Shown here in pieces: positions 14,446 to 61,960 of a DNA stretch of 64,000 nucleotides. Source of the DNA: Pseudomonadales bacterium. Its GTDB lineage: Bacteria > Pseudomonadota > Gammaproteobacteria > Pseudomonadales > UBA5518. The notes under the pieces were generated by a model that did no database searches, was not told where the DNA came from, and saw only the letters and a list, made by a program, of their open reading frames with translations. Location of the stretch: assembly GCA_022072145.1 (NCBI GenBank), contig JAJVIG010000016.1, positions 152,917-216,916 on the forward strand, in the 5' to 3' direction. Numbering within the stretch: the stretch's first letter is position 1; every line of letters starts with the position of its first letter. A program made the position numbers and the translations under genes.

Positions 14446-14453
14446 CCACGGCC

Positions 14454-27490: not shown

Positions 27491-27504
27491 GCGGAGACAG
27501 CACG

Positions 27505-38791: not shown

Positions 38792-38836
38792 AGGGTCACG
38801 CCATCTTTGTTTACTGGTAAGTGAATTGTCCGCGAT

Positions 38837-39811
38837 TCACGGCAGGTGCGGCAACACGCGCGTCTCGAACAGGCGCAGCATGCGCCATGCCTCGTGCACC
38901 GGGATACCCCCCATCAACGGGTTCAGCAGCAGCAGTCCGCGCGGCCCGAGCCGCTGGCCGAGCGCGATCGCCTCCTCCGGCGTCAGCACGCGATACGCCG
39001 GGTTCGCGCGCGCCTGAGCGGGACTCACGCCGCCGCGGTACGGACCGCGTGCCTCGCCGTAGCCCTCCACCGTGAACTGCACGTATTCCTCGATCTGACC
39101 GAGCACGTGCGGCATCAACATCCGCCAGGCGGCTTCCACGTCCTCGGCGACCCACAGGAACACCGGCCCCAGCGGCTGCATCGGACCCGGATCGGGCTTG
39201 CCGAGCGCACGGCACTCGGCGCGGTAGGGCTCCCACAGCGCCGCATCGTGCGGCGTCGCGAAGCCGTCGGCGATGCGCGCCGCACGCCGGGCCGCCGCCA
39301 CGCTGCCGCCGCCGAGCAGGATCCGGGGCGGCGGATCCGGCACCGGCCGGATGCACAGGCTGCGCCCCTCGTTCTCGAAGGTCTCGCCGCTCCACGCGCG
39401 GCGCAGGAACGCGACCGTCTCGCCGACGGTCTTCCAGCGGTCCGCGAGCCGGGTGCCGTAGACATCGCATTCGCGCTGGCGGTAGCCGCCGCCGATCGCG
39501 ATCTCGAAACGCCCGCGGGACACCAGCGACAGCACCGCGGTGTCCTCCGCCAACCGCACCGGGTGGTAGAAAGGTGCCAGCAGCACGTTCGGCCGCATGC
39601 GGATGCGGCGCGTGCGGCCCGCCACGGCCGCACAGCTGACCAGCGGCGAGGGGTTGTAGCCGCTCACCGAGGCGTGATGCTCGCCGAAGTTCGCGCACGC
39701 GAAACCCACCTCGTCGCCCCAGGCACAGATGTCGAGCATCGCCGGGTGCAGCTCGCGGTGCGGCGTGGCGCCGGCCGGGGAGCGCAGTTCGAAAGCCAGG
39801 TGCAGTTCCAT
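38837..39811 (-). CDS. luciferase-like (LLM class) flavin-dependent oxidoreductase
   Basis: In-frame ATG 39811 (MELHLAFELRSP...). VGFACANFGEHH, LAEDTAVLSLVSRGRFEIAIGGGY. Confidence 0.7.
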   Translation of the reverse strand: MELHLAFELRSPAGATPHRELHPAMLDICAWGDEVGFACANFGEHHASVSGYNPSPLVSCAAVAGRTRRIRMRPNVLLAPFYHPVRLAEDTAVLSLVSRGRFEIAIGGGYRQRECDVYGTRLADRWKTVGETVAFLRRAWSGETFENEGRSLCIRPVPDPPPRILLGGGSVAAARRAARIADGFATPHDAALWEPYRAECRALGKPDPGPMQPLGPVFLWVAEDVEAAWRMLMPHVLGQIEEYVQFTVEGYGEARGPYRGGVSPAQARANPAYRVLTPEEAIALGQRLGPRGLLLLNPLMGGIPVHEAWRMLRLFETRVLPHLP

Positions 39812-39937
39812 CCAGTCCTCCGTCGGTTGGCGCCGAAACCGCGTCGCCGCTACGCCGCCTGCACGACCGCCGCGGGAAGCGGGACTGTACAAGTCTGTTA
39901 TATGATCGAACAAATACATTTTCTTCATGTGATGCAC

Positions 39938-40882
39938 ATGGACAAGATCGATATTCGACGCGGCGATCTGCACCTGCTGGTGGTGTTCGATGCCATCTAC
40001 CGCGAAGGCACCGTGACGCGCGCAAGCGACCGGCTGCACGTCACGCAGTCCACGCTGAGCCATTCCCTGCGCCGCCTGCGCGAACTGTTCGGCGACCCGC
40101 TGTTCGAGCGCCACGGCAACGTGATGACGCCGACCCCGAAGGCGCGCAGCCTGATCAGGCCGATCCAGGCCGGCCTGGAAATGCTCGAGAGTTCGGTGAA
40201 CCAGATCGTGCCGTCGCAACCGCGCCGCGTGCGGCAGAAGCTGACGATCGGCATGGACAGCACTGACGTCGCCGGTTTCCTGCCGGAACTGGTCGCGCGC
40301 CAGGACGCGGACTCGGACTACGACATCACCATCGCGCGCTACGAGTTGAACAAGTTCGAAACGCGCCTCGTGACCGGCAAGTTCGACGTGGTGATCCAGC
40401 CGCTGGCGCCGCATTCCGAGCACGTGCGCCACGCGCTGATGACCCGCGAGGGACTGGCGGTCGCCGCCCGCCGTGGCCACCCGGCCGTGGTCGGCGGCGC
40501 GATCGGCTTCGACGACTACATGCGCCAGCGTCATGTGCTGATCACGCCGGGCAACGCCTCGTGGGACCTGGTCGACATGGCGTTCCGCCAGTCGCGGCTG
40601 AACCGCGAGATCCAGGTGCGCTGCCAGGACTACTGGACCGCATGCGAGATCGTCCAACTCACCGACTGCCTGCTGACGGGCACCCGCACCACGATCGGCA
40701 AGATCGCGGGCAGCTTCCCTGAGCTGCAGGTCTGCGCGCCGCCCGCGGAACTGAACATGGAACCGCAGGACGTCTATCTCTACTGGCACGCCGCGCGCGA
40801 GAACGATCCGGCCAACCGCTGGTTGCGTAACAACCTGCTCGCGATCCTCCGGGAAGCCTCGCAGGAAGCCGTATCGAAATGA
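39938..40882 (+). CDS. LysR-family transcriptional regulator
   Basis: MDKIDIRRGDLHLLVVFDAIYREGTVTRASDRLHVTQSTLSHSLRRLRELFGDPLFER. Divergent from the LLM gene. The start could be ATG 39902, 39932 or 39938. Confidence 0.85.
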   Translation: MDKIDIRRGDLHLLVVFDAIYREGTVTRASDRLHVTQSTLSHSLRRLRELFGDPLFERHGNVMTPTPKARSLIRPIQAGLEMLESSVNQIVPSQPRRVRQKLTIGMDSTDVAGFLPELVARQDADSDYDITIARYELNKFETRLVTGKFDVVIQPLAPHSEHVRHALMTREGLAVAARRGHPAVVGGAIGFDDYMRQRHVLITPGNASWDLVDMAFRQSRLNREIQVRCQDYWTACEIVQLTDCLLTGTRTTIGKIAGSFPELQVCAPPAELNMEPQDVYLYWHAARENDPANRWLRNNLLAILREASQEAVSK

Positions 40883-41032: not shown

Positions 41033-43678
41033 ATGAGAGATGTCACCATCCGTCCCAGGCGTTCCGTGCTGCTGCTGCAGGCAGCGATCGCCGGCAGCCT
41101 GCTCGGTTCGTACGCCGTCACCGCCAGCGCACAGGAATCCTCGGCAACGGATTCGCTGGGACTGGACGAGATCGTCGTCACCGCGCAGCGGCGCGAGGAA
41201 AACCTCCAGGACGTCTCGGTCGCGATCAGCGCCTTCGACGGCGACGCGCTGCGCCAGCAGAACATCACCAGCGCCTTCGACATCGTCGGCAAGGTTCCCG
41301 GCGTCATGGTCAGCACCGGCGCCGGCCCGCGCAACGCCGAGGTCGTGGTGATCCGCGGCCAGGGCCAGACCTACCTCTCGTCGGTGGGCGTGGTGAACTA
41401 CTTCGCCGAGGTGCCGCTGATCCAGGGCACGATCCAGCCCACCCAGGGCGGTCCCGGCACCTTCTTCGACCTCGAATCGCTGCAGGTCCTGCGCGGCCCG
41501 CAGGGCACGCTGTTCGGCCGCAACACCACCGGCGGCGCGGTGCTGCTGGGGCCGAAGAAGCCCGGCGAGGACTTCGAGGGCTATGTGCAGGCGCAGGCCG
41601 GCAACTACGACGATCGCGAATACGAGGCGGCTGTGAACGTGCCGCTGGTCGCCGAGCGGCTGATGGTGCGCGCCGCGTACAAGGACGTGAGCCGTGACGG
41701 CTTCACCAGGGACGTAGGCCCGCAGGCCTTCGGCTACGACACCGTCTGCGACGTGGACAGCGGCGATTACTGCGGCTTCGGCAACCCGACCGGCGCCGGC
41801 TACGCGGGCAAGGACTACGACAACAAGGACTGGTGGCACGGGCGGGTCAGCGTGCTGTGGCGCCCCACCGATGCAATCGAGAACAACCTGATCGCGCTGC
41901 GTTCGAAGTCCGACGACAACGGCACCGGCATCATCTTCGACGGCGCCGGCCCCGGGCCGAACGTCGCGAACCTGGTCGGCAACATGGCCTACGACTTCAC
42001 CAAGCTGTTCTCGCCGGCAACGATGTTCGACCCGACGATCACCCAGTCGGTGCTGGCACGCCAGGAACAGCTCGGCGAGCGCAAGGTCGCGATGAACACC
42101 GACCAGTTCTACAGCGTCGAACACGAGGCCTACATCGACACGCTGTCGGTGGAGTTCTGCGACACCCTGACCTTCCGCAACATCCTGAGCTATCAGGAAA
42201 TGAAGATCGACTACAACTGGGACCTCGACGGCTCCATCCTGCCGATGCTGTCGCAGCAGTCGCCGTACGTGCCGGCCAACGTGAACAACAACCCCTTCGG
42301 GTCACCCGGAACGCGGGGTAACGTGTCGGACTCCAGCCAGCTCACCGAGGAAGCGCAGCTGATCGGCAAGGCCTTCGACGAGCGTCTCGACTACGTCGCC
42401 GGCATCTACTACGCGAAACTCGAACCCGAGGGATTCCAGGCCACCGGCAGCTTCAACGCCGCCACCGAGGAACCCGGCCTGCCGTACGCGATCGAGATCA
42501 CCAGCAAGGCGGTCTACGCACAGGGCACGCTGCAGCTCGGCCTGCTGTCGGGGTCGCTGGAGGCGTGGAAGCTGACCGTCGGCCTGCGTTACACGGAGGA
42601 CGAGACCGAGGGTTCCCGCTTCAGCAACCGCTACCGCGGTGACCGCATCTACACCGATCCGAACACCTACACTATCCAGGTGCGCAGCGAGACGCTGAAG
42701 TCCGACGAACCGACGTGGACCGTGGGACTCGACTACGACCTCAACGACAGCACCATGCTCTACGGCAAGGTCACGCACGGCTACAAGGCCGGCGGGTTCA
42801 ATTACGCCGGCGTCGGCGGCGTGATGACCTACGAACCGGAACTGGTCACCAACTACGAGCTCGGCGTGAAAACCGACTTCGATCTCGGCGGCATGCCGGC
42901 CCGCGTGAACGCCAACGTGTTCCACCTCGACTACGAGGACCTGCAGCGCGCGGCGGGCAACAACGCCCCGATCGGCAGTTTCGTGAACGGTGTGTGCACC
43001 GGCCCGAACGGCGAGAACTTCGCCGACGTGCCGACCTGCCTCGACCAGGGTGCGATCACCTTCAACGCCGAGCAGGCGTGGATCCGCGGTATCGAGCTCG
43101 AGGCGATGATCCGCCCGACCGGGAACTTCGATCTCTCGGCCAGCTACTCCTACCTCGACGGCGAGTACGACGACTTCGAGCTCACGGTACAGCCCGACCC
43201 GCTGCGCGGCGGCTTCGTGGTCAACACCTGCAACGGGGCGCAGACGGTGCCGTTCATCGGCCAGGCGAGTTTCGTCGCCGACCTCTCGTGCATCCCGATG
43301 CAGAACATCCCCGAGCATACGGCGGCGCTGACCGCACGCTACACGCTCGCGCTCGGCGACGGCGCCGGTGACGTGGTGCTGCTCGCGAACTGGAGCTACC
43401 GCGGCAAGGTCTACACCTCGGCGACCACGCATCCCAAGGACGACCCGGGCGCGTGGCTCGACGGCTACGACGTGCTGAACCTCTCGGCCGAGTGGAACGG
43501 CGTGCTGGGATCGAACGTCGATTTGCGCGCCTTCGTGAACAACGCCACCGACGAGACCTACGCGGTGTACTCGTACATCGGTCTGCAGCAGTCGAGCGGT
43601 TTCGTGAACTCGACCTACGGCGAACCACGCATGTACGGTGTGTCGCTGCGCTACCGCTTCGGCGCACTGGGAGGCTGA
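41033..43678 (+). CDS. TonB-dependent receptor (paralogue 2)
   Basis: In-frame ATG 41033 after AAGGGGAG. Signal peptide ...SYAVTASAQE, plug LDEIVVTAQRREENLQDVSVAISAFDG...LQVLRGPQGTLFGRNTTGGAVLL. Ends YGVSLRYRF+GALGG. About two-thirds identical by eye to paralogue 1 over the N-terminal 200 aa. Confidence 0.9.
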   Translation: MRDVTIRPRRSVLLLQAAIAGSLLGSYAVTASAQESSATDSLGLDEIVVTAQRREENLQDVSVAISAFDGDALRQQNITSAFDIVGKVPGVMVSTGAGPRNAEVVVIRGQGQTYLSSVGVVNYFAEVPLIQGTIQPTQGGPGTFFDLESLQVLRGPQGTLFGRNTTGGAVLLGPKKPGEDFEGYVQAQAGNYDDREYEAAVNVPLVAERLMVRAAYKDVSRDGFTRDVGPQAFGYDTVCDVDSGDYCGFGNPTGAGYAGKDYDNKDWWHGRVSVLWRPTDAIENNLIALRSKSDDNGTGIIFDGAGPGPNVANLVGNMAYDFTKLFSPATMFDPTITQSVLARQEQLGERKVAMNTDQFYSVEHEAYIDTLSVEFCDTLTFRNILSYQEMKIDYNWDLDGSILPMLSQQSPYVPANVNNNPFGSPGTRGNVSDSSQLTEEAQLIGKAFDERLDYVAGIYYAKLEPEGFQATGSFNAATEEPGLPYAIEITSKAVYAQGTLQLGLLSGSLEAWKLTVGLRYTEDETEGSRFSNRYRGDRIYTDPNTYTIQVRSETLKSDEPTWTVGLDYDLNDSTMLYGKVTHGYKAGGFNYAGVGGVMTYEPELVTNYELGVKTDFDLGGMPARVNANVFHLDYEDLQRAAGNNAPIGSFVNGVCTGPNGENFADVPTCLDQGAITFNAEQAWIRGIELEAMIRPTGNFDLSASYSYLDGEYDDFELTVQPDPLRGGFVVNTCNGAQTVPFIGQASFVADLSCIPMQNIPEHTAALTARYTLALGDGAGDVVLLANWSYRGKVYTSATTHPKDDPGAWLDGYDVLNLSAEWNGVLGSNVDLRAFVNNATDETYAVYSYIGLQQSSGFVNSTYGEPRMYGVSLRYRFGALGG

Positions 43679-43761
43679 TCCCCGCGCCACCGTCCCCGGA
43701 CCGTCCGCCGTCCCCCCGGGGCGGGCGGTCCGGGACCACCCCGCCAAGGGAGGAGATCCGG

Positions 43762-44439
43762 ATGAAAGCTACTTATCTTCGCGACACACCGCTGACGGGT
43801 CTGCTGGACCCGTTCGGCGAGGCGTGGTCGCGTGTGAACACCGAAACCCTGGCGCTGAGCGGCACGCCGTCGGCGCTGCAACCCACGGCGGCCGTGCGCG
43901 TGGCGTTTCCCGAAGGCACGATCGGCGCGATCCGCAGCGCCGAACTCGCCGTGGCGCACAACGGCAGCGAGATCGCGTTCCGCCTGCGCTGGGCAGATGC
44001 CTCGATGAACACCGCCGCCGCCGGGGAGGACGACACGCTGTTCCCCGACGGCGCCGCCCTGCTCTTCCCGGCCGCTCCCGGTGCGCCGCTGATGTCGATG
44101 GGCGCCCCCGGCAAACCGGTCACCGCCTGGTACTGGCGCGCCGACGAGCCCGATCGGGGCCGCCACGTCAGCGCGCAGGGACTCGGCAGCTCCGACACCC
44201 TCGATCGCGAACTGGTCAAGGTCGCCGGCGTCCACCGCGACGGCCACTGGCACGTGGTGATCGCGCGCGCCCTTGCCGTGGCGAAGGGACCGGCCACCGT
44301 GCGGCTCGTCCCCGGACAGGCCACCCCGTTCAGCCTCGCGATCTGGGAAGGCGGACACCGCGAACGCGCCGGCATCAAGGCCTTCGCGATGGGCCAGCAC
44401 GACGGCTGGCACGAACTCATCCTCGACCCGCAGGCCTGA
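43762..44439 (+). CDS. haem-b gamma subunit of a type II DMSO-reductase-family enzyme (ethylbenzene-dehydrogenase gamma / EB_dh-like)
   Basis: In-frame ATG 43762 after GGGAGGAG. 225 aa. FPDGAALLFPAAPGAPLMSMGAPGKPVTAWYWRAD and FSLAIWEGGHRERAGIKAFAMG carry candidate Met/Lys haem ligands. No obvious signal peptide. Confidence 0.7.
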   Translation: MKATYLRDTPLTGLLDPFGEAWSRVNTETLALSGTPSALQPTAAVRVAFPEGTIGAIRSAELAVAHNGSEIAFRLRWADASMNTAAAGEDDTLFPDGAALLFPAAPGAPLMSMGAPGKPVTAWYWRADEPDRGRHVSAQGLGSSDTLDRELVKVAGVHRDGHWHVVIARALAVAKGPATVRLVPGQATPFSLAIWEGGHRERAGIKAFAMGQHDGWHELILDPQA

Positions 44440-44453
44440 ACCCCGGAGGCGAC

Positions 44454-45497
44454 ATGAACACGAGCAAACGCCAGCTGGCGATGGTGATGGACCTCAACAA
44501 GTGCATCGGGTGCCAGACCTGCACGGTCGCGTGCAAGACGCTGTGGACCGGCGACGAGGGCATGGAGCACATGTGGTTCAACACCGTGAACACGCTGCCC
44601 GGCAAGGGCACGCCCCACGGCTGGGAAGACATGGGCGGCGGCTTCGACGCCGAGGGCAACGCCGTGGTCGGCCATATCCCCAGCCGCAAGGAGTTCGGCG
44701 AGGCGTGGAAGTTCGACCACGAGGGCAGCTACTACGGCGGCAAGGGCGATGCCTCGCACCTCGCGATCGCGGGCGAGCCCCCGACCTGGGGCCCCAACTG
44801 GGACGAGGACCAGGGCGAGGGCGAGTTCCCGAACACCCATTACTTCTACATGCCGCGCATCTGCAACCACTGTACGCACCCGGCGTGCAAGGAAGCGTGT
44901 CCGCGCGACGCCATCGACAAGCGCGAGGAAGACGGCATCGTCACCGTCAACGAGGACCGCTGCCGCGGCTACCGCTTCTGCCAGGCGGCGTGTCCGTACA
45001 AGAAGATCTACTTCAACCACCAGAAGAAGGTCTCCCAGAAGTGCCTGTTCTGCTTCCCGCGCATCGACAACGGCGTGGCGCCGGCCTGCGCGCGCCAGTG
45101 CCCGGGACGGGTGCGTTTCGTGGGCTACCGCGACGACCCCGAGGCGCCCATCTGGAAGCTGGTCGAGAAGTGGAAGGTCGCGCTGCCGCTGCACCCCGAG
45201 TACGGCACCGAACCCAACGTGTTCTACGTGCCGCCGATCGGCCCGCTGAGTTTCGACCAGGACGGCGACATCGACGAGTCCACGCCGCGCATTCCCGACG
45301 CGTACCTGATCCGGCTGTTCGGGCCAAGCGTGCTCGATGCGCTGGCGACGCTGAAGGCCGAGCGCGAGAAGAAGCGTGCCACCGGCGAGTCCGAACTGAT
45401 GGACCTGCTGATCGCCTACGAATGGAAGGACATGTTCGGCGGCTTCGACACCGACCCGAGCACGGTTTCGGTGGTGAAGTGGACCAACGCATCCTGA
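44454..45497 (+). CDS. FeS beta subunit (NarH/EbdB type, four cluster motifs)
   Basis: 347 aa. CIGCQTCTVACK, CNHCTHPACKEACP, CRGYRFCQAACPY, CLFCFPRIDNGVAPACARQCP. Confidence 0.9.
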   Translation: MNTSKRQLAMVMDLNKCIGCQTCTVACKTLWTGDEGMEHMWFNTVNTLPGKGTPHGWEDMGGGFDAEGNAVVGHIPSRKEFGEAWKFDHEGSYYGGKGDASHLAIAGEPPTWGPNWDEDQGEGEFPNTHYFYMPRICNHCTHPACKEACPRDAIDKREEDGIVTVNEDRCRGYRFCQAACPYKKIYFNHQKKVSQKCLFCFPRIDNGVAPACARQCPGRVRFVGYRDDPEAPIWKLVEKWKVALPLHPEYGTEPNVFYVPPIGPLSFDQDGDIDESTPRIPDAYLIRLFGPSVLDALATLKAEREKKRATGESELMDLLIAYEWKDMFGGFDTDPSTVSVVKWTNAS

Positions 45498-45512
45498 CCG
45501 GAGGAAACGCAC

Positions 45513-48377
45513 ATGCAATCGATCCATGCGACGCGCCGGGCCTTCCTGCGCGGCACCGCCATCGGTGCGCTGGGACTGGCCCTCGACCTCAAGACCCTGC
45601 GTCCGGTCTTCGCCGACGCGCGGCTCCCGCCCGAGGCACGTGAATACACCGGCTACCGCGACGTCTACCGCCGCAAGTGGAGCTGGGACCGCATCGGCGT
45701 GGGCACGCACTCGTGCACCAACTGCGCCAGCGGCGGCTGCTCGTGGAACCTGTACGTGCGCGACGGCATCGTCTGGCGCGAGGAGCAGGGCGCGCCCTAT
45801 ACGCAGACCAACGCGAGCGTGCCGGACTACAACCCGCGCGGCTGCCAGAAAGGCGCCTCGGCCAGCGCGCTGTACCGCAGCCCGGCACGGATCCGCTACC
45901 CGCTGAAGCGCGTGGGCGCGCGCGGCGAGAACCGCTGGAAGCGGATTTCGTGGGACGAGGCCTTCGACGAGATCGCGGCGCAGCTGGTCGACACGCTGTC
46001 GACCCGCGGTGGCGTCGGCGGCTACTGCGAGAACGGCAACAACAGCGACTTCGGCCCGAGCTGGATCGCGATGGTGCGTTTCTTCAACCAGCTCGGCATG
46101 CCGATCACCGAGAACTTCGCGAGCACCGGCGACCTGATGACCGGCGCCACGCTGGTGCTGGGCAACCCGGTCCCGGGCGGCTCCTCGGACGACTGGTTCC
46201 GCAGCGACTACTTCGTGAACTGGTTCGGCAACCCGATGTCGACCCGCATCCCCGACGCGCACTTCATCACCGAGATGCGCTACCGCGGCGGCAAGTACGT
46301 CTCGGTCACGCCGGACTTCAATCCGAGCGCGATCCACACCGATCTGTGGATCGGCGTGCGTCCGGGCACCGACGCGGCGCTCGCGCTGGCGGCGTGCCGG
46401 GTCATCATCGACGAGGACCTGCACGATGTGCCCTACATCATCGAGCAGACCGACCTGCCGCTGCTGATCCGCGAGGACACGCGGCAGTTCCTGCGCGAGT
46501 CCGACGTGATCGAGGGCGGCCGACGCGAGTGCTTCGCGTGGTGGGACGGCCGCAAGCGCGCGGTCGTATGGTCGGCCAGCTCGGCGCAGTTCGAACAGGA
46601 CAAACGCACGCTGAAGCTCGGCCCCGACGACCAGGTGGAACTCGAACCGCGCAACGCGCGCGTGACGCTGCTCTCCGGCGAGACCGTGAAACTCAGCAGC
46701 GCGTTCACGCTGCTGCGCCGCAACCTCGAGGACTACGACGCGAACAGCGCCGCCAGGATCACCGGCGTGCATGCGAACGTGATCCGGCGCTTCGCGCGCG
46801 AGTTCGCGAACGCGAAGGCGGCCAAGATCTATATGGGAGCCGCGGCGGGCAAGATCCTGCACGGCGAGCTGGTGCAGCGCGCCACCATCCTGATGTGCGC
46901 GCTGACCGGCAACAACGGCCGCGTGGGCGGCGGCTGGGAGGAAATGACGTTCTGGGAGCTCGACGGCAAGATACTGTCGGCCTTCCACGATTTCCCCAGC
47001 GACCTCGTCCCGGGCGACATGAACACCATCTACCCGGCGCTGATGGGCATGGGCGCACAGCAGGCGGCGAGTCCCGCGTTCATCTCGGGATCCTTGCTTA
47101 TGCTGCTGAACGGCGGCACCTACGCCGAGCAGCTCAACCCCGCGTACAACGATCCGACGCTGCGCCGCACGCCCGAGGAGTTTCTCAAGGAGGGTATCGC
47201 CAAGGGTGAACTGCACAACGTGCCCGGCGAGGAACTGGGCAGCCCGGACGTGATCTTCAACATGTTCGGCAACCCGTTCCGTCACCGCCGCATGGGCGAG
47301 CGCCTCGGCAGGACGCTGTTCGCGAAGGCCAGGCTGGTCGTCGACCTGACGCTGCGCATGGACGACACCGCACGGCACTCCGACATCCTGCTGCCGACCG
47401 CCGGCCCCTACGAGAAGCTCGGCTTCAAGTACTCGGTCTCGTATCCTCCGTACCTGCACCTGGCCGACAAGGCCGTGGAGCCGCTCGGCGAGGCCAAATC
47501 GGACTGGGAGATCCTCTCGCTGCTTATGCAGCGCGTGGAAGCCGAGGCCAGGCGCCGCGGCGTGCGCACGGTGAAGACCTACCGCGGCGTCGAGTACGAT
47601 CTCAGCCAGGCGTACTGGCGCTTCAGCGACAAGGGACGCATCGGGCCGCACGAGGACGAGAAATTCATGCGCCTGATCCTCGCGCTGTCGCCGGCGACGC
47701 AGGGCATCACGATGGAGGAACTGCGCGCCAACAAGGGTGTGATGCGCTACACCGGCGTCAGCCAGATGGGCAAGATGTGGTGCGGCACCAGCGATTACCG
47801 GCCCGACGAACCGCTGGTTCCCTACCAGGACTACGTGGTCAGGAAGATGCCGTGGCCGACCAGCACCGGGCGCCAGCAGTTCTACGTCGATCACGCGATC
47901 TACGTCGAGGTCGGCGAGACGCTGCCGGTGCACAAGCAGCCGCCCCGCTCCGGCGGTGACTTCCCGCTGGTGATGACCTGCGGCCACACGCGCTGGAGCG
48001 TGCACACGCTGTGGCGCGACGTCGACATCCTGCTCAGGCTGCAACGCGGCGAGCCGGTGATCTTCGTGAACCCGGACGACGCCGCGCGGCGCGGCCTCGC
48101 CGACCACGACTATGCCGCCGTGCACAACGACCTCGGCGAGTTCGTGGCGCGCGTGAAGCTCACGCCGGGCATGCAACCGGGCCAGGTGCATATCTTCCAC
48201 GCCTGGCTCGCCACGCAGCACGTCGGGGGGCGGGCCAGCGACGCGATCACGCCGAGTCCGACGCGGGTCACGAACTTCGCGGGCAAGCACGGCCACATGG
48301 TCAATGAGGTCGGCTGGTTCGACCTGAGTGGCAACGACCGCGACACGCGCGTCGATCTGCGCAAATATACGGCCTGA
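45513..48377 (+). CDS. molybdopterin (bis-MGD) catalytic alpha subunit, ethylbenzene dehydrogenase / steroid C25 dehydrogenase-like, Tat-exported
   Basis: 954 aa. Twin-arginine leader MQSIHATRRAFLRGTAIGALGLA. FS0 motif THSCTNCASGGCSW...YNPRGCQKGAS. YPLKRVGARGENRWKRISWDEA. Candidate Asp Mo ligand in FASTGDLMTG. C-terminal GHTRWSVHT...QRGEPVIFVNPDDA. Confidence 0.88.
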   Translation: MQSIHATRRAFLRGTAIGALGLALDLKTLRPVFADARLPPEAREYTGYRDVYRRKWSWDRIGVGTHSCTNCASGGCSWNLYVRDGIVWREEQGAPYTQTNASVPDYNPRGCQKGASASALYRSPARIRYPLKRVGARGENRWKRISWDEAFDEIAAQLVDTLSTRGGVGGYCENGNNSDFGPSWIAMVRFFNQLGMPITENFASTGDLMTGATLVLGNPVPGGSSDDWFRSDYFVNWFGNPMSTRIPDAHFITEMRYRGGKYVSVTPDFNPSAIHTDLWIGVRPGTDAALALAACRVIIDEDLHDVPYIIEQTDLPLLIREDTRQFLRESDVIEGGRRECFAWWDGRKRAVVWSASSAQFEQDKRTLKLGPDDQVELEPRNARVTLLSGETVKLSSAFTLLRRNLEDYDANSAARITGVHANVIRRFAREFANAKAAKIYMGAAAGKILHGELVQRATILMCALTGNNGRVGGGWEEMTFWELDGKILSAFHDFPSDLVPGDMNTIYPALMGMGAQQAASPAFISGSLLMLLNGGTYAEQLNPAYNDPTLRRTPEEFLKEGIAKGELHNVPGEELGSPDVIFNMFGNPFRHRRMGERLGRTLFAKARLVVDLTLRMDDTARHSDILLPTAGPYEKLGFKYSVSYPPYLHLADKAVEPLGEAKSDWEILSLLMQRVEAEARRRGVRTVKTYRGVEYDLSQAYWRFSDKGRIGPHEDEKFMRLILALSPATQGITMEELRANKGVMRYTGVSQMGKMWCGTSDYRPDEPLVPYQDYVVRKMPWPTSTGRQQFYVDHAIYVEVGETLPVHKQPPRSGGDFPLVMTCGHTRWSVHTLWRDVDILLRLQRGEPVIFVNPDDAARRGLADHDYAAVHNDLGEFVARVKLTPGMQPGQVHIFHAWLATQHVGGRASDAITPSPTRVTNFAGKHGHMVNEVGWFDLSGNDRDTRVDLRKYTA

Positions 48378-48390
48378 GGAAAGCGTATCG

Positions 48391-49065
48391 ATGGGGAGCA
48401 CGATGGAGCAGAACACGAGCGCCAGGGCGATGGACGCCTCGCGCAGCCTGAGCTACCTGACCTTCGCGACCGCGTTCGCGTACCCGGACCAGGAAGGACT
48501 GCAGGCGATCCGCGCCGGCGAGCTCGCCGGCGCGCTGCGCCACCTGCTCGGGTCCATCGACCCTGCCCTGCTCGCGGACACCGACTGGGAGGCGCTGGGT
48601 GACGCCGGCCCCGACGACGAGACGCTGCTGGTCGAGTTCACCCGGCTGTTCGAGGCCGGCCCGGACGGCCCGGACTGTCCACTGAACGGCGCGCGCTACC
48701 GCGGCGGCAGCATGGAGCCGCTCGAGGAACTGGTGCGCTTCTACGATTTCTTCGGCCTGACGCTGGACCAGGCCACGCAGGGCGAGCCCGACCACCTGGT
48801 CACGGAGCTCGAGTTCCTGCATTTCCTGTCGTTCCAGGAGGCGCAGCTCGGCGCCGCCGGCGAGGACGTCGGCGGACTGCTGCGCGCGCAGCGCGACTTC
48901 ATCGAACGCCACCCCGGCGCGTGGGTGCCGGCGCTCTGCCAACGCCTGGCCGAGCGCGAGGCGCCGCGCTTCTTCCGCGAGCTCGCGGGCCTGCTGCAGC
49001 GCTTCCTGCGCCAGGAGCAGACCCGGCTCGCGCTGCAGATCGACGACGGCACCACGGCGCACTGA
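48391..49065 (+). CDS. TorD/NarJ/EbdD-type maturation chaperone (delta)
   Basis: ATG 48391 ten nt after GAGGA (alternative 48403). LLVEFTRLFEAGPDGPDCPLNGARY...EPDHLVTELEFLHFLSFQE. Confidence 0.75.
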   Translation: MGSTMEQNTSARAMDASRSLSYLTFATAFAYPDQEGLQAIRAGELAGALRHLLGSIDPALLADTDWEALGDAGPDDETLLVEFTRLFEAGPDGPDCPLNGARYRGGSMEPLEELVRFYDFFGLTLDQATQGEPDHLVTELEFLHFLSFQEAQLGAAGEDVGGLLRAQRDFIERHPGAWVPALCQRLAEREAPRFFRELAGLLQRFLRQEQTRLALQIDDGTTAH

Positions 49066-49068
49066 GGC

Positions 49069-50205
49069 ATGAGCGAACTCACCGACACACTCGCCGCACC
49101 CCGCGTCACCACCCGCGATCCGGCCGAACTGCAGCGGCTGCTGACGGCCTGGTTCGCGCGCACGCTGGGGCCCGGCAGCGCGCCCCGGCTGTCGGCGCTC
49201 GCCAGCCCCGGCAAGGCCGGGATGTCGAGCGAAACGCTGCTGTTCGAGCTGCACTGGAACGAGCACGGCAGCGAACGCAGCGGCCACTTCGTCGCCCGCC
49301 TGCCCCCGCCCGCGGATGCCTTCCCGCTGTTCCCGCGCTACGACTTCGACCTGCAGGTCGAGGCGATGCGGCTGGTCGGCCGCCACAGCACGGTACCGGT
49401 GCCGCGCGTGCCGTGGCAGGAGCGCTCCAGCGAGGCACTCGGCGTGCCGTTCTTCGTGATGGAGCGCATCGACGGCGAGATGGTGCCCGACAACCCGCCG
49501 TACGTATTCGGCGGCTGGCTGGCCGAGGCGTCGGCGGCCCGGCAGCGGCAGGTCGAGCAGGAGCTGATCGAAGCGATCGCCGGCATCCACGGCATTGGCG
49601 CCGACCGCGCCGAAACCGCGTTCCTGCACATCGACCAGCCGGGCGCCACCGCGCTGCGCCGGCATTTCGCACGCGAACGCGCGCTGTACGAGTGGGGCCG
49701 CAACGGCATGCGCTTCGCGCTCGTCGAGCGGCTGTTCGACTGGCTGGAGGCGCACTGGCCGGCGCACGAGGGCGAGCCGGTGGTCAGCTGGGGCGACGCC
49801 CGGCCGGCGAACGCGCTGTGGCGCGAGGCACGCATCGTCGCGGTGCTCGACTGGGAGCTCGCGATGCTCGGCCCGCGCGAGATGGACGTGGGCTACCTGA
49901 TCTTCTTCCACCAGTATTTCCGGCACATCGCGCAGGTGATGGCCGCCATCGATCCTATGGCGGAGTTCCTGCGCCGCGACGCGGTGGTCGCCGCCTACGA
50001 GGCGCTCACCGGCGCGCGGCTCGGCGACATCGACTGGTATATCACCTACGCGCTGCTGCAGCAGTGCGTCATCGATATCCGGGTCTCGCAGCGGCGCATC
50101 CTGTTCGGCGAGATGGAACGCCCGCAGAACAGCGACGAGTACCTCTACGGCCGGCGCCTGGCCGAGCGCGTCCTCGCCGGCGACCGCGCGATCTGGCTAC
50201 CGTAG
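49069..50205 (+). CDS. APH-family phosphotransferase (kinase)
   Basis: 378 aa. Starts 3 nt after the delta stop. Catalytic-loop block VSWGDARPANALW and metal-binding VLDWELAMLGP. The TAG stop lies inside a REP element. Confidence 0.75.
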   Translation: MSELTDTLAAPRVTTRDPAELQRLLTAWFARTLGPGSAPRLSALASPGKAGMSSETLLFELHWNEHGSERSGHFVARLPPPADAFPLFPRYDFDLQVEAMRLVGRHSTVPVPRVPWQERSSEALGVPFFVMERIDGEMVPDNPPYVFGGWLAEASAARQRQVEQELIEAIAGIHGIGADRAETAFLHIDQPGATALRRHFARERALYEWGRNGMRFALVERLFDWLEAHWPAHEGEPVVSWGDARPANALWREARIVAVLDWELAMLGPREMDVGYLIFFHQYFRHIAQVMAAIDPMAEFLRRDAVVAAYEALTGARLGDIDWYITYALLQQCVIDIRVSQRRILFGEMERPQNSDEYLYGRRLAERVLAGDRAIWLP

Positions 50206-50342
50206 GTCCGGGCTGTGCCCGGACATGTGTTCGTGTAGGTCCGGGCTGTGCCCGGACATGTTCGGCCACAGGCCGAACCTGCGCGGACATGTTCGGCCAC
50301 AGGCCGAACCTGCGCGGACATCTGTTCGGCCACAGGCCGAAC
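50202..50342. repeat. tandem array of five REP-like palindromic elements (two sequence types)
   Basis: 2x GTAG+gtccgggc-tgt-gcccggac (hairpins 50206-50224 and 50239-50257). 3x gttcggcc-aca-ggccgaac (50260-50278, 50291-50309, 50324-50342). Spacers are 1-14 nt (14, 2, 12, 14 between successive hairpins). Confidence 0.85.
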
Positions 50343-50375
50343 CGGACAAATCTGATCACACACCGAGGAGCACTC

Positions 50376-51554
50376 ATGGACAATACCGTCAGCCCCGGCA
50401 GCAACCCCATCGGCCCCCTGATCGAGGCCGACGAGCAGTTCTGCCACCAGGTCACGGATTCCTTCGCCTGCGTGGGCAGCACCGACCCCTCGTGGACCGA
50501 GAAGGTCTGCGCGATGGCGATGGCGCGCGACGGCAGCCTGCAGCTCGGCTTCGGACTCGGCAAATACACCAACCGCAATGTGATGGACGCCTACGCGGGC
50601 ATCTCGCGCGGCAAGGAACAGATCACGGTGCGCGCCAGCCGCGAGCTCGCGCCGGAGCCGAACCGCACCGTGATCGGACCGATCCGCTACGAAGTGGTGG
50701 AGCCGCTGAAGAAGGTGCGCTTCGTGCTCGAACCGAATGCCACGCAGCCGATCGCCTTCGACTGCCTGTTCGAGCACCGCGTGCCGGCGCGCTTCGAGGA
50801 CCGCACGCACATCCGCCAGGGCTATCGCGTGATGAGCGAACTGGTGCGCTACCACCAGACCGGCGTGGCCTCGGGCTGGATCGAGGTCGACGGCGTGCGC
50901 ACCGTGATCGATCCTGACGGCTGGGTCTGCACGCGCGACCACTCCTGGGGCGTGCGCTACGGCGTGGGGCATCCGCTGATCGATGCCGAGCCGCCCGGCG
51001 TCGGCACGCAGGCGGATTACGAGTTTTTCTGGAGCCCGAGCTACCTGCAACGCGCCGACGGCAGCGATTACGCGGTCTTCCTCAGTTTCAACCAGTTCGA
51101 CACCGCCTGCGGCCGCACGCGCTCGGTGATGTCGGCCATCGAACACCCGGACGGGCGCATCGAGCGCATCGTCGACATCGAACCCGAGCTCGACTACCAC
51201 CCGGTCAACCGCCGCTTCCTCGGCGGCCGCATCGTCTGCCGCATGGCCGACGGCACGCTGCGCCCGATGACCATCGAGGTGCTCGCGGACACCGGCTTCC
51301 ACCTCGGTGCGGGACTCTATTTCGGCTTCGACGGCCACTACCACGGCGGCTGGCGCGGCAAGCTGCACATCGACGGCGAGCGCATCACCGACTGCAGCAC
51401 GCCCGAGAACGCCAGGCGCCTGCACCAGATCCGCGACACGGTGGTGCGCATCAGCGACCCGGTCGGCGGCGGCGTGGGCTGGGGCAACTGGCAACCGATG
51501 ATGGTGGGCAAGAACGAACGGCTCGGCCTGAAGGCCGAGGATTCGTTCTCCTGA
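50376..51554 (+). CDS. hypothetical protein (DUF; distant paralogue of 14454..15416)
   Basis: In-frame ATG 50376 after GAGGAG. 392 aa. EADEQFCHQVTDSF, GWIEVDGVRTVIDPDGWVCTRDHSWGVRYG. The upstream part of track ORF 48921..51554 reads through the REP array and is not coding. Confidence 0.6.
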   Translation: MDNTVSPGSNPIGPLIEADEQFCHQVTDSFACVGSTDPSWTEKVCAMAMARDGSLQLGFGLGKYTNRNVMDAYAGISRGKEQITVRASRELAPEPNRTVIGPIRYEVVEPLKKVRFVLEPNATQPIAFDCLFEHRVPARFEDRTHIRQGYRVMSELVRYHQTGVASGWIEVDGVRTVIDPDGWVCTRDHSWGVRYGVGHPLIDAEPPGVGTQADYEFFWSPSYLQRADGSDYAVFLSFNQFDTACGRTRSVMSAIEHPDGRIERIVDIEPELDYHPVNRRFLGGRIVCRMADGTLRPMTIEVLADTGFHLGAGLYFGFDGHYHGGWRGKLHIDGERITDCSTPENARRLHQIRDTVVRISDPVGGGVGWGNWQPMMVGKNERLGLKAEDSFS

Positions 51555-51579: not shown

Positions 51580-52545
51580 ATGAAGGCAGCGGTCTACTAC
51601 CAGAACGGCGGCCCCGAGGTGCTTCGCTACGAGGACGTCCCGGACCCGATGTGCGGCGCTGATGAGGTGATGATCCGCGTCGAGGCGATCAGCCTCGAGG
51701 GCGGCGACCTGCTGCACCGCCAGTCCTCGCCGCCGCCCGCGCGCCCGCACATCGTCGGCTACTCGACGGCCGGCGAGATCGTCGCGCTCGGCGCCGACGT
51801 GACGGGTTTCGCATGCGGACAGAAGGTGATCACGTTCGCATGGGCCGGTTCGCACGCCGAGCTGCGCACCTCGAAGGCAGCGCACACCTGGGCGCTGCCG
51901 CCGGGGCTCGACGTGCGCAGCGGGGCCGGGATCCCGGCCGCCTTCGGCACCGCACACGAGTGCCTGGTCGAGGCAGCGCGTGTGCGCGCCGGCGACAGCG
52001 TGCTGGTGCTGGGCGCGAGCGGCGGGGTCGGCGTGGCCGCCGTGCAGCTCGCGCGGAGGGCCGGAGCACGCGTGACCGGCACCGCGGGCAGTGCCGCCAA
52101 GCTTGCACGACTGCACGCACTCGGCATGCACGAGGGCATCGATTACCGCCGCGACGACGTGGGCGCGGCGATCGCGCGCCACGCGGGCGAGCACGGCTAC
52201 GACGTGTGCATCGACACCGTCGGCGGGCGTGCGCTGCAGGCAGCCTCGAAGGCGATGACCGTCAACGGGCGCCTGATCATCGCCGGCTGCGCCGCGCGCG
52301 AGCCGAACCTGATCGACTCGGTCGACATCATGGTCGGGCGCTACAGCGTCACCGGTGTGATCGCCGGTTTCGATTTCGCGACCCCGCGCCTGCACGCGGC
52401 GATCGGCGAACTGATCGCCGCCATCGCGCGCGGCGAACTCGTGATGCCGATCGCGCGCGAGTTCCCGCTCGCCGAGGCCGCCGCCGCGCACGCCTGGGTC
52501 GAGTCCGGCGCCGCCGGCTTCGGCCGCGTGCTGCTCATACCCTGA
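51580..52545 (+). CDS. MDR-family NAD(P)H quinone oxidoreductase / zinc-type alcohol dehydrogenase-like
   Basis: 321 aa. MKAAVYYQNGGPEVLRYEDVPDP, VLVLGASGGVGVAAVQLAR. Confidence 0.85.
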   Translation: MKAAVYYQNGGPEVLRYEDVPDPMCGADEVMIRVEAISLEGGDLLHRQSSPPPARPHIVGYSTAGEIVALGADVTGFACGQKVITFAWAGSHAELRTSKAAHTWALPPGLDVRSGAGIPAAFGTAHECLVEAARVRAGDSVLVLGASGGVGVAAVQLARRAGARVTGTAGSAAKLARLHALGMHEGIDYRRDDVGAAIARHAGEHGYDVCIDTVGGRALQAASKAMTVNGRLIIAGCAAREPNLIDSVDIMVGRYSVTGVIAGFDFATPRLHAAIGELIAAIARGELVMPIAREFPLAEAAAAHAWVESGAAGFGRVLLIP

Positions 52546-52571: not shown

Positions 52572-53465
52572 ATGCCTTACCTGAAACGCAGTGATGCCAG
52601 CGTGTTCTTCGACGATACCGGCGGGCGCGGCGCGCCGATCGTCACGCTGCACGGCTTCATCGAGAACGGCAGCTACTGGGGACGCACCGGCGTCTCGGGC
52701 GCGCTGGCCGACGCCGGCTACCGCGTGATCGACATGGACATGCGCGGCCACGGGCGCAGCGTGCCGGAAGGCGCGAACCCGGGGTATTCGATCGAGTCGG
52801 TCGCCGCGGACATCGGCGCGCTCGCCGATCTGCTTGGCCTGCAGCGCTTCCACCTGCTCACGCACGCCACCGGCGGCATGGCGGCGCTGCGCTACGCGAT
52901 GGACCACAGCGAGCGGCTGCTGTCGATCACCTCCAGCGATACCTCCTCGGCCACCATCCCGCTCGAGAAGTACTGCGGGCCGGAATGGGACGAGCAGCCG
53001 GTGCCGATGGACGATCCCGACATCCTCTCGGTCGCCGAATTCAACGCCGGCAACCTGGCGGCGTTCCCGAACTTCGCCGAGATGTTCCGCCGCCTGCGCG
53101 AGGACCCGGCGAACCACCCGCTGGCGCCGTTCTACAACCGTTTCGAGAGCAACGCCGACCCCGAACGCTGCTGGCGCTGGGCGCTGGAGATCCAGTCGCT
53201 GAACAACCCGGTGCTGTGCAGCGCCTTCGCGCGCAGCTACTACGCGGACCACGATCCGCGCACCGCGGCCCTGCGGCGCATCGGCTGTCCGAACCTGGTG
53301 ATCGTGGGCGAGCACGACTTCTACATGGTGAAGCCCGCCGAACAGCTCGCGCGCTGCATACCGCAGGCGGAGCTGGTCGTGATGGAAGGTCTTGGCCACA
53401 TGACCGCGATCGAGGCACCTGAGCGTATCACCGAACTGGCGCTGCGCTTCCTGCGCTCGCTGTAG
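52572..53465 (+). CDS. alpha/beta-hydrolase fold protein with non-canonical nucleophile elbow
   Basis: In-frame ATG 52572. IVTLHGFIENGSYW, DMRGHGRS. The elbow reads LLTHATGGMAA where G-H-S-x-G-G is expected. The TAG stop lies inside a REP. Confidence 0.75.
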   Translation: MPYLKRSDASVFFDDTGGRGAPIVTLHGFIENGSYWGRTGVSGALADAGYRVIDMDMRGHGRSVPEGANPGYSIESVAADIGALADLLGLQRFHLLTHATGGMAALRYAMDHSERLLSITSSDTSSATIPLEKYCGPEWDEQPVPMDDPDILSVAEFNAGNLAAFPNFAEMFRRLREDPANHPLAPFYNRFESNADPERCWRWALEIQSLNNPVLCSAFARSYYADHDPRTAALRRIGCPNLVIVGEHDFYMVKPAEQLARCIPQAELVVMEGLGHMTAIEAPERITELALRFLRSL

Positions 53466-53484
53466 GTTCGGCCTGTGGCCGAAC
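53462..53484. repeat. REP element (GTAG + gttcggcc-tgt-ggccgaac)
   Basis: GTAG at 53462-53465, whose TAG is the stop of the hydrolase gene. Perfect 8-bp stem and 3-nt loop at 53466-53484. Confidence 0.85.
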
Positions 53485-53498: not shown

Positions 53499-54668
53499 TC
53501 AATCGCGCCCGAAGATCACCGCGCCGGTGGGCACGCCCACTCCGCTGGACACCAGCACGTGCTCGGCGCGCCTGGGCTGGTTGCACGAGGTGCCGCGGAT
53601 CAGGCGCACGCCTTCGGCGATGTTGTTGACGCCGTGGATGTACGCCTCCGACAGCAGCCCGCCGTGGGTGTTGTTCGGCAGCCGGCCGTCGATGCGCAGG
53701 TTGCCGTCGGCCACGAAATCCTTCGCCTCGCCGCGCTCGCAGAAACCGAAGGACTCTAGCTGCATGACGATCTCGGTCGAGAACGCGTCGTACAGGCACG
53801 CGGCGTCGATGTCCTTCGGCCCCAGTCCCGACATCGCGTAGACGCGCCGCGCGGCCAGTTCCATCTCCGGCAGCGAATCGAGCTCCTCGCGGTAGAAGCT
53901 GGTCATCTGCTCCTGGCCGCGCGTGGAGGCCTGCGTGACACCGCGGATCACCGCCGGCTTCTGGCGCAGGTCGCGCGCGCGCTCGGTGCTGGTGATCAGC
54001 AGCGCGCAGGCACCGTCGGTTTCCTGGCAGCAGTCGTAGATGCACAGCCGCTCGGTGATGCGTTTCGCGGCCATGTACTCCTCGATCGTCAGCGGGCGTC
54101 CGTAGCCGGCTGCATTCGGGTTGTTGAGCGCGAAGGTGCGTTGCGCGATCGCGACCTCGGCGAGGTGCTCGCGCGTCACGCCGTACTTGTGCATGTAGGT
54201 GTTGGCGATCATCGCCACCCACGACACCGGGGTCAGCATGCCGTAGGCCATGTACCACGACCAGTGGATCAGGTCGCTGCTGATGATGTTGCCCGAGACG
54301 CCCTGCCCCATGCGCTGACCCGAGCGGCCGTTCATCGCACGCCAGACGATCACGTTCTTCGCGGCACCTGAGGTCACCGCCATCACTGCCTGCTGGATCA
54401 GCCCGACCGCCGCGCCGCCGCCGTAGTTGATCTTGGCCCACATCGTCAGGTCACCGAGGCCGACCGCGCGCGCGACCTCGATCTCGTCGCTGGTCTCCAT
54501 CGTGTAGGTGACCAGACCATCGACCTCGGCCGGGTCGAGGCCGGCGTCGTCGCAACAGTTGCGCACCGCCTCGCACGCCAGCGCGAGTTCCGAGACGCCC
54601 GAATTCTTGGTGTACTTCGTGGTGCCGATACCGGCGACCGCTGCCTGGTTCTTCATCGAAACCGCCAT
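53499..54668 (-). CDS. thiolase-like (SCP-x / Ltp-type) protein lacking the nucleophilic Cys
   Basis: 389 aa. AAVAGIGTTKYTK..., and INYGGGAAVGLIQQA where thiolases have C-(A/S)-(S/T)-G. NNTHGGLLSEAYIHG near the C-terminus. Confidence 0.8.
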   Translation of the reverse strand: MAVSMKNQAAVAGIGTTKYTKNSGVSELALACEAVRNCCDDAGLDPAEVDGLVTYTMETSDEIEVARAVGLGDLTMWAKINYGGGAAVGLIQQAVMAVTSGAAKNVIVWRAMNGRSGQRMGQGVSGNIISSDLIHWSWYMAYGMLTPVSWVAMIANTYMHKYGVTREHLAEVAIAQRTFALNNPNAAGYGRPLTIEEYMAAKRITERLCIYDCCQETDGACALLITSTERARDLRQKPAVIRGVTQASTRGQEQMTSFYREELDSLPEMELAARRVYAMSGLGPKDIDAACLYDAFSTEIVMQLESFGFCERGEAKDFVADGNLRIDGRLPNNTHGGLLSEAYIHGVNNIAEGVRLIRGTSCNQPRRAEHVLVSSGVGVPTGAVIFGRD

Positions 54669-61918: not shown

Positions 61919-61960
61919 GTTCGGCCTGTGGCCGAATGTTTGTCCGGGCACAGCCCGGAC
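61915..61960. repeat. two adjacent REP elements (one of each type)
   Basis: GTAG at 61915-61918, gttcggcc-tgt-ggccgaaT at 61919-61937 (one terminal mismatch), then gtccgggc-aca-gcccggac at 61942-61960. Confidence 0.8.

Follow-up and report, generated by a model that had tools for sequence, protein, structure and literature searches.

To our knowledge, an oxygen-independent route to a C26 alcohol, in which C25 is hydroxylated, the resulting alcohol is phosphorylated, phosphate is eliminated and C26 is then hydroxylated, has been known from one organism only. That organism is Sterolibacterium denitrificans, and the genes of the route have been described as scattered. The enzymes of this oxygen-independent activation of the cholesterol side chain are S25DH, the 25-hydroxysteroid kinase 25-HSK (SDENChol_21286), the 25-phosphosteroid lyase 25-PSL, and S26DH (PMC7411048, PMC8449060, PMC11061730). 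The present analysis concerns a 64,000-nucleotide (nt) stretch of DNA from Pseudomonadales bacterium, a gammaproteobacterium (contig JAJVIG010000016.1 of assembly GCA_022072145.1, positions 152,917 to 216,916), referred to below as the window. An operon at 43762-51554 of the window, containing genes for a molybdenum (Mo) enzyme, a kinase and a lyase-family protein, probably specifies the oxygen-independent, ATP-driven activation of an isoprenoid-type alkyl terminus, the likeliest substrate being a sterol or steroid side chain. We infer the catalytic steps and the substrate from the observed gene content, homology, fold, conserved residues and synteny.

Parts of this gene set have counterparts in other described systems. 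The genes of ethylbenzene dehydrogenase (EBDH) are arranged in the order alpha-beta-gamma-delta, and ethylbenzene catabolism involves neither a kinase nor a lyase. In Mycobacterium tuberculosis, Rv3168 and Rv3169 encode an APH-fold kinase followed by the protein that gives the NF053593 family its name, which is the kinase-lyase architecture of the window; we are not aware of a Mo hydroxylase linked to these two genes. In the AttH/CrtC group, hydratases convert isoprenoid C=C bonds into tertiary alcohols and back, the same bond change, with no phosphorylated intermediate. The Rv3168-Rv3169 operon is repressed by the TetR regulator Rv3167c (PMC5340868).

Seven genes, all on the plus strand, run from 41033 to 51554 of the window. 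They encode a TonB-dependent outer-membrane receptor (41033-43678; Plug and barrel domains), the gamma, beta, alpha and delta subunits of the Mo enzyme, the kinase and the lyase-family protein. The gaps between them are, in order, 83, 14, 15, 13, 3 and 170 nt, with the kinase ATG 3 nt past the delta stop codon. A preliminary description of the locus had reported seven co-oriented, tightly spaced genes, and this layout was borne out by the open reading frame (ORF) listing, frame analysis, and Pfam and NCBIfam searches. The operon structure is argued from spacing and synteny, because a promoter and terminator scan of 40.4-53.7 kb gave no signal exceeding shuffled expectation. The G+C content of the window is approximately 69%, and a tRNA scan of its whole length found no tRNA genes. 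To obtain related loci (designated below by L numbers), the GTDB species genomes were scanned for lyase relatives; 586 stretches were confirmed, and the best 80 were retrieved.

The 170-nt gap between the kinase and lyase genes, which measures approximately 100 nt or less in relatives, does contain the array of repetitive extragenic palindrome (REP)-like hairpins reported previously (50202-50343, no strand; a 27-nt unit present twice and a 31-nt unit three times). The core hairpins, GGTCCGGGCTGTGCCCGGAC and TTCGGCCACAGGCCGAAC, represent two families and are located at gene ends. Extra core copies were found at 53466-53483, 61919-61961 and 62247-62266, each core having 4-5 matches versus 0.01-0.03 expected. 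In public short-read assemblies, contig breaks coincide with the array between the kinase and lyase genes.

The kinase (49069-50205, plus strand) had been proposed for comparison with the published 25-HSK, and it proved to match that enzyme over its full length. Residues 7-372 align with residues 6-374 of PDB entry 9FSG (418 bits, E 2.5e-124), which is taken to be 25-HSK on the grounds that its N-terminus, MSDTPDL, agrees with published cloning primers. The next PDB match is Rv3168 (3ATS), at 284 bits, and antibiotic resistance kinases score 35 bits or less. 25-HSK is an APH-type protein of 40 kDa that requires a sterane skeleton, tert-butanol being turned over at <0.1% of the rate, and its nearest reported relative is WP_186453974.1 from Denitratisoma sp. 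DHT3 (PMC8449060). The window kinase is 54% identical to WP_186453974.1 and 48% identical to the orthologue in a Sterolibacterium metagenome-assembled genome (MAG). In a midpoint-rooted neighbour-joining (NJ) tree with 100 replicates, the clade containing the window kinase groups with the orthologues from Denitratisoma and Sterolibacterium (97% bootstrap support), and actinobacterial and other kinases are separate. Rv3168 (3ATS/3ATT) differs in lying in a sister group, where an 84% clade holds the actinobacterial kinases. The window kinase is, in this tree, a clade-mate of 25-HSK, and would be predicted to phosphorylate tertiary steroid alcohols.

The 392-aa product of the last gene (50376-51554, plus strand), previously described only as a DUF (domain of unknown function) protein, gave no Pfam matches. 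It scores 358.6 bits with NCBIfam model NF053593 ('Rv3169 family'; cutoff 150), compared with 387 bits for the 25-PSL orthologue (an ORF of the Sterolibacterium MAG, locus L004, with an E value of 1e-236 to PDB entry 9FZN) and 356 bits for a Denitratisoma-type relative. A family profile matched the PDB 25-PSL with an E value of 1e-34, and the single sequence did so with an E value of 2e-26. The five top Foldseek matches of an AlphaFold model of the lyase homologue (pLDDT 77, pTM 0.78) are 25-PSL chains, with E values of 6e-21 to 3e-20 and TM scores of 0.67-0.74 over 352-394 columns. Lower-ranked matches were a putative AttH, kievitone hydratase and fungal Diels-Alderases. AttH/CrtC-like proteins (2ICH) and kievitone hydratase (7A0T) share a beta-rich fold with the model (E 2e-9 to 7e-8), but at 10-12% identity and TM scores of 0.41-0.49.

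Thirty-one residues are invariant in an alignment of three subtypes of the family, including H24, Q25, D37, Y64, N66, D71, R158, Q161, D188, R194, Y315 and H323. D188 belongs to a conserved RDxSWG motif (TRDHSWGVR in the window), and is replaced by Asn in the sequence of 9G4C, an entry described as the lyase with phosphate and desmost-1,4-diene-3-one. Because the D-to-N substitution is found in an entry with bound phosphate and product, we infer that this Asp is catalytic. The suspected relationship to the 25-phosphosteroid lyase is thus seen in the NCBIfam family, the fold and the Asp motif. The three 25-PSL entries (9FZN, 9G2I and 9G4C) were released in January 2026, and a literature search found no open paper describing 25-PSL, so that the enzyme name rests on the PDB depositors. 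In 2021 no lyase candidate was reported near the kinase gene (PMC8449060), and in 2024 the lyase gene was still 'putative' (PMC11061730).

Proteins from Actinomycetota, Myxococcota and Binatia share 62-66% identity with the window protein. In seven loci (L042, L049, L052, L065, L068, L071 and L073), a 25-PSL-type gene, a kinase gene and a window-type lyase gene lie in a row, at approximately 7.65-11.15 kb in most of them. These loci are from MAGs of Acidimicrobiia and Myxococcota, and their 25-PSL-type genes are 37-50% identical to 25-PSL. The window protein is not called a 25-PSL orthologue, because both subtypes coexist around one kinase; by sequence, it is a paralogous subtype.

Other members of the family were also encountered. 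On the contig that carries the Denitratisoma sp. DHT3 kinase (L007, 1761-7397), consecutive genes encode an aldo-keto reductase, a short-chain dehydrogenase/reductase (SDR), the kinase, a lyase of a third subtype and a flavoprotein. This lyase shares 25% identity with the window protein and 32% with 25-PSL. The flavoprotein, which is amine-oxidase/phytoene-desaturase-like, could relate to the delta-24 desaturase of PMC11061730. Such a flavoprotein was considered as a general follower of the lyase gene and rejected, since it occurs in only two further loci and is non-adjacent there. In the window itself, a DUF7064/DUF7065 protein (14454-15467, minus strand) is a remote relative of the lyase family, with an RDxSW motif and an NF053593 score of 48.8 bits, below the cutoff; its gene adjoins a nitronate-monooxygenase-like gene.

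The Mo enzyme is encoded upstream of the kinase by four genes, all on the plus strand. The gamma subunit (43762-44439) has the haem b-binding EB_dh domain (PF09459 E 9e-22; TIGR03477 126 bits; EbdC model 121 bits), and the beta subunit (44454-45497), with four iron-sulfur clusters, scores 503 bits with TIGR03478 (cutoff 480.7) and 449 bits with the EbdB model. The delta subunit (48391-49065) is an assembly chaperone of the NarJ/TorD type (PF02613; TIGR03482 146 bits). The alpha subunit (45513-48377), the proposed water-dependent C-H hydroxylase, would bind a Mo-bis(pyranopterin guanine dinucleotide) cofactor and the FS0 cluster. The twin-arginine translocation (Tat) leader ascribed to it is confirmed by a TRRAFL motif. 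In the PDB alignment, its D207 and K447 align with D223 and K450 of EbdA, respectively; we take EbdA Asp223, and with it the aligned Asp207, to be the Mo ligand. The window thus has an alpha-beta-gamma-delta set with an EB_dh haem b gamma subunit, a Tat leader and the Mo-ligand Asp, as in enzymes of the EBDH/S25DH type.

The alpha subunit scores 806.6 bits with the type II alpha model TIGR03479 and 482.7 bits with the EbdA equivalog model. Because these values are below the curated cutoffs (984.75 and 2000, respectively), it is regarded as a divergent lineage. Two sequence blocks, YNPxGCQKG and YPLKRVGxRGExxWKRxSWDEA, had been cited as typical of EBDH. Both are present, but they mark type II dimethyl sulfoxide (DMSO)-reductase enzymes generally, since PcrA has near-identical forms.

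Phylogenetic analysis of the alpha subunit was performed by NJ, using representatives at 50% identity together with EbdA and PcrA (partial sequences, from PDB alignments), and ClrA and Haloferax NarG from annotated plasmids. A 1250-aa representative taken as NarG served as the outgroup, and SerA, DdhA, NxrA and S25dA were left out. It is apparent from this tree that the window alpha subunit and EbdA share a clade, with 98% bootstrap support, that excludes ClrA, PcrA, pNarG and NarG; ClrA forms its own 100% clade, and PcrA groups with pNarG. The expected grouping with EbdA, apart from ClrA, PcrA and NarG, was therefore obtained. Within the shared clade, the window alpha subunit belongs to a subclade with 100% support of its own, at 34% identity to EbdA, and is not a member of the well-supported EbdA subclade (90-100% bootstrap). 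A single subcluster comprising S25DH, EbDH and p-cymene dehydrogenase is described in PMC6016249. None of the 120 closest alpha homologues (all at least 46% identical, most without an organism name) carries a Sterolibacterium label. Compared with EbdABCD (PDB 2IVF), the window enzyme has the same subunits, cofactor motifs and Tat leader, but its genes are in the order gamma-beta-alpha-delta.

The order gamma-beta-alpha-delta-kinase-lyase is kept in six genomes (L009, L010, L011, L014, L015 and L016), whose block from gamma to kinase is 71-92% identical to that of the window at the nucleotide level. These MAGs are labelled as Gammaproteobacteria, Steroidobacteraceae, 'Pseudomonadales' and 'Rhodocyclaceae'. 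On a 124-kb metagenome contig (L091), an alpha subunit of the same subclade (46% identical) adjoins a kinase, a window-type lyase and a pair of acyl-CoA dehydrogenases (ACADs). The module genes are much more divergent there, and the contig also carries an AdhE-like dehydrogenase and a sulfotransferase. Given the six syntenic genomes and the recurrence in L091, the association between this alpha subclade and the kinase-lyase pair is no accident of one genome. The co-occurrence of the kinase and DUF genes with the Mo genes in related genomes, which had been raised as a check, is thus found in all six syntenic loci. More widely, of the 76 loci with sufficient flanking sequence, which come from many phyla, 43 have the kinase gene immediately upstream of the lyase gene, the rest being of mixed contexts.

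In L091, the alpha gene (5455-8403, minus strand) adjoins the kinase-lyase pair, and genes for the beta, gamma and delta subunits are absent within 10 kb. A family of approximately 377-aa proteins with no Pfam or NCBIfam matches was found at L091 8748-9881 (minus strand), L014 2555-3544, L015 2386-3447, L019 7628-8677 and L035 7438-8461. In L014 and L015 its gene immediately precedes gamma, and in L019 and L035 it is found upstream of the kinase; the window has no copy. The 377-aa ORF by the L091 alpha gene was considered as a second lyase and rejected, there being no significant similarity.

The TonB-dependent receptor does not share this conservation. The preliminary description had the module fused to outer-membrane import, but a close receptor homologue upstream of gamma was found in none of the six syntenic loci, and the receptor is accordingly ruled out as a part of the module. 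In the closest relative, L010 (92% nt identity), the only one whose upstream genes were annotated, a CoA ligase and an amidohydrolase are encoded upstream of gamma. DNA homology to L010 ends upstream of approximately 43.86 kb, inside gamma. At the DNA level (window 43600-44400 versus L010 3330-4180), identity falls from approximately 97% in beta to 65-80% across gamma, with no homology further upstream, and the gamma and beta subunits are 69 and 98% identical, respectively. The gamma/beta junction is thus a recombination boundary, and the gamma allele and the TonB gene appear to have been swapped in together.

A second Mo enzyme is encoded at the end of the window, as had been reported for 62.3-64 kb, on the minus strand. 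A second delta chaperone gene (62266-62937; PF02613; 38% identical to the first delta) is accompanied by the C-terminal third of a second alpha gene (62934-64000), which is cut by the window end. The nearest representative of this alpha subunit is P0375 (55%). Its identity to proteins of the subclade that contains the first alpha is approximately 44%, and it falls in a different subclade within the same large clade. We regard it as a candidate second, allylic hydroxylase. In another metagenome representative, P0383 (1152 aa), a delta-type chaperone is fused to the alpha N-terminus; the chaperone part is 36% identical to the window's second delta.

The window locus thus resembles the S. denitrificans system in having an alpha-beta-gamma enzyme of the type II DMSO-reductase family together with its delta chaperone, a kinase of the same clade, and a lyase-family protein of the same family and fold with the Asp motif. 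It also has a second Mo enzyme paralogue and, nearby, steroid-type genes for side-chain beta-oxidation. It differs in that a single operon, known at the level of genes, contains the genes for hydroxylase, kinase and lyase. In the Sterolibacterium MAG, in contrast, the 25-HSK and 25-PSL orthologues (L004 10001-11134, plus strand, and 13899-14987, minus strand) are approximately 2.8 kb and four genes apart, on opposite strands, with no Mo gene within 10 kb. Further differences are the lyase, which is of the other subtype (24-33% identical), the alpha subunit, which is in a separate subclade, and the host, which is a gammaproteobacterium with Steroidobacteraceae-labelled relatives rather than a betaproteobacterium.

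According to the preliminary description, hydroxylation, phosphorylation and elimination would follow one another as in S. denitrificans, carried out here by the Mo enzyme, the kinase and the unknown protein. Homology, fold and synteny are in agreement with this view. In the proposed pathway, the Tat-exported alpha-beta-gamma enzyme, assembled with delta as its chaperone, would hydroxylate a tertiary C-H bond with water in the periplasm. The cytoplasmic APH-fold kinase would then phosphorylate the tertiary alcohol at the expense of ATP, and the 25-PSL-family protein, the proposed phosphate-eliminating C-O lyase, would release phosphate to give an alkene, by means of the RDxSWG Asp. The allylic primary carbon would then be hydroxylated by another Mo enzyme, for which the paralogue at 62.9-64 kb is a possible candidate. 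The product would be oxidized to an acid, ligated to CoA and shortened in a manner like beta-oxidation, for which the neighbouring CoA ligase, paired ACADs, SDRs and Ltp2/DUF35 aldolase are candidates.

Several of these neighbours lie downstream of the operon. A gene for an MDR-type (zinc-ADH/quinone oxidoreductase-like) oxidoreductase (51580-52545, plus strand) begins 25 nt past the lyase gene and may extend the operon; a gene of this kind downstream of the lyase is not conserved in relatives. An alpha/beta hydrolase gene (52572-53465, plus strand) is possibly the last gene of the operon. On the minus strand there follow genes for a thiolase-fold protein of the Ltp2 type (53499-54668) and a stand-alone DUF35 protein, a ChsH2-type OB/zinc-ribbon aldolase partner (54670-55086; PF12172, PF01796). 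The former matches chain A of PDB 6OK1 over its full length (E 1e-133), and 6OK1 is TcLtp2, a steroid C17 side-chain aldolase (PMC12329534). The thiolase/DUF35 pair noted earlier as aldolase-like is therefore of the Ltp2 type. The flavoprotein encoded at 55763-57232 (plus strand), in contrast, had been called KstD-like, and is instead a PRK07121-type FAD-binding protein of the KstD superfamily: it scores 732 bits with NF005510, versus 149 bits or less with KstD models whose cutoffs are near 790.

Upstream, at 26279-28731 on the plus strand, is an ACAD gene pair that appears to encode heteromeric enzymes of the steroid type; where its second gene starts is uncertain. The paired ACADs of the preliminary description were identified by Pfam, and their best matches among solved structures are Tcur3481/Tcur3483 (6WY8, 6WY9) and 4X28, which we take to be steroid side-chain ACADs. 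The pair is followed by genes for an acyl-CoA synthetase of the PRK07798 type (28767-30380, plus strand; NF005863 600 bits) and a family III CoA-transferase/racemase-type protein (31207-32406, minus strand; PF02515 E 8e-105). L014 and L015 have a similar ACAD pair downstream of the lyase gene, together with SDR and ligase genes, and in both of them orthologues of the acyl-CoA synthetase (55-57% identical) are also near the module; an ACAD pair is present in L091 as well. The window further contains three SDRs, one TetR and one LysR regulator.

Further genes lie upstream of the operon. The first 14 kb appear to contain housekeeping genes, judged from N-terminal sequences alone. At 19391-26229, a second TonB-dependent receptor gene precedes two DUF3604 genes (Pfam E 1e-213 to 5e-237) that are divergently oriented. 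Genes for a sulfotransferase, a DUF1214 protein and a luciferase-like oxidoreductase are at 36225-40219 (minus strand). This set recurs with the kinase-lyase pair in L013 (1599-6103), and the sulfotransferase gene in L091 (397-1656). L013 and L091 both carry an AdhE-like aldehyde/alcohol dehydrogenase gene, and the window lacks one.

A number of observations weigh against the assignment of the operon to sterol side-chain activation. In the alpha subunit, EbdA His192 is replaced by Asn, and among PDB sequences PcrA (515 bits) outscores EbdA (458 bits), with NarG at 232 bits. The deep nodes within the EbdA-containing clade have only 4-26% bootstrap support, and the label 'S25DH-like' is indirect, being derived from the EbdA anchor and the clustering reported in PMC6016249. 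The window lyase homologue, at 24-33% identity to 25-PSL, is aligned with it by phmmer in the N-terminal half only, and the two lyase subtypes may differ in their jobs. No kinase gene is within 10 kb in 31 of the 76 window-type loci. The link between the TonB receptor and the module is not conserved: with a 53%-identical receptor encoded near the kinase-lyase pair in L018, it is at most a loose, recurring association. Finally, there are no steroid ring-cleavage genes, and no true KstD, within the window.

Some of these observations would be accommodated if the same three-step chemistry acted on a non-sterol substrate, such as a hopanoid, an acyclic isoprenoid, an iso-branched lipid or a terpenoid, with a corresponding difference in the specificity or regiochemistry of the lyase. 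The distinct alpha subclade, the different lyase subtype, which in seven loci stands at the same kinase as a 25-PSL-type gene, and the missing ring-degradation genes are all in keeping with such a substrate, as is the wide distribution of the lyase family: many NF053593 relatives are found in aerobic Actinomycetota with no Mo enzyme nearby. Set against this are the grouping of the kinase with 25-HSK, which needs a sterane skeleton (PMC8449060), the close Ltp2 homologue and its DUF35 partner 2 kb downstream, the steroid-type best matches of the ACAD pair, and the Steroidobacteraceae label of relatives. A non-sterol substrate is therefore considered possible but unlikely, and a sterol or steroid side chain remains the likeliest substrate of the operon.

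It could also be supposed that the Mo enzyme is a respiratory or detoxifying reductase of an oxyanion (nitrate, chlorate, perchlorate or selenate), to which the kinase-lyase pair is adjacent by chance. The top PDB score of PcrA, the alpha score under the TIGR03479 cutoff and the sequence blocks held in common with PcrA could be read in this way, but PcrA, pNarG, ClrA and NarG all lie outside the 98% clade of the window alpha subunit and EbdA. Among the genes annotated at 14-64 kb there is no chlorite dismutase or respiratory accessory gene, whereas cld is adjacent in the clr locus. Nor is a chance association easily reconciled with the 3-nt gap between delta and kinase, the six-gene order kept in six genomes, or the recurrence of the alpha-kinase-lyase association in L091, and this explanation is judged to be very improbable. 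Still less credible is the idea that the kinase modifies antibiotics, as a phosphotransferase of aminoglycosides or macrolides, and that an unrelated protein, lipocalin-like or AttH-like, is encoded at 50376-51554: Pfam gives only the generic APH family, with weak matches to APH(3') (E 7e-4) and macrolide phosphotransferases (E 2e-4), but the kinase scores 418 bits with 25-HSK and 19-24 bits with resistance enzymes, its partner matches 25-PSL in sequence, fold and catalytic motif, and the kinase-lyase pair is conserved across phyla.

The logic of the pathway and all three enzyme families are already known. What is new, relative to what could be found, is the single-operon organization, the gamma-beta-alpha-delta order, the pairing of a Mo-hydroxylase subclade of its own with another lyase subtype, and the occurrence of the system in Gammaproteobacteria with Steroidobacteraceae-labelled relatives. 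The cultured Steroidobacter denitrificans has no 25-HSK candidate (PMC8449060). The operon of hydroxylase, kinase and lyase genes provides independent genetic evidence that the three steps belong together, and it extends the range of the pathway to uncultured Gammaproteobacteria from sludge and digesters. S25DH, for which Thauera aromatica has served as expression host (PMC6016249), is already in use for making 25-hydroxyvitamin D3, and the new Mo-hydroxylase subclade could differ in its substrate scope.

For the NF053593 family, these results offer a testable hypothesis of function, namely the elimination of phosphate from tertiary phosphoesters. Because the window subtype coexists with 25-PSL-type genes in several phyla and is highly conserved, it may be suggested, very tentatively, that it catalyses a distinct reaction on the tertiary phosphoesters made by the kinase, involving another substrate, another regiochemistry or a rearrangement. 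If so, the kinase-lyase pair would constitute a general, unrecognized system for the ATP-dependent dehydration of tertiary alcohols in isoprenoid lipids, with Rv3168-Rv3169 having the same architecture, and the gammaproteobacterial lineage described here would have recruited that pair to a new subclade of Mo hydroxylases.

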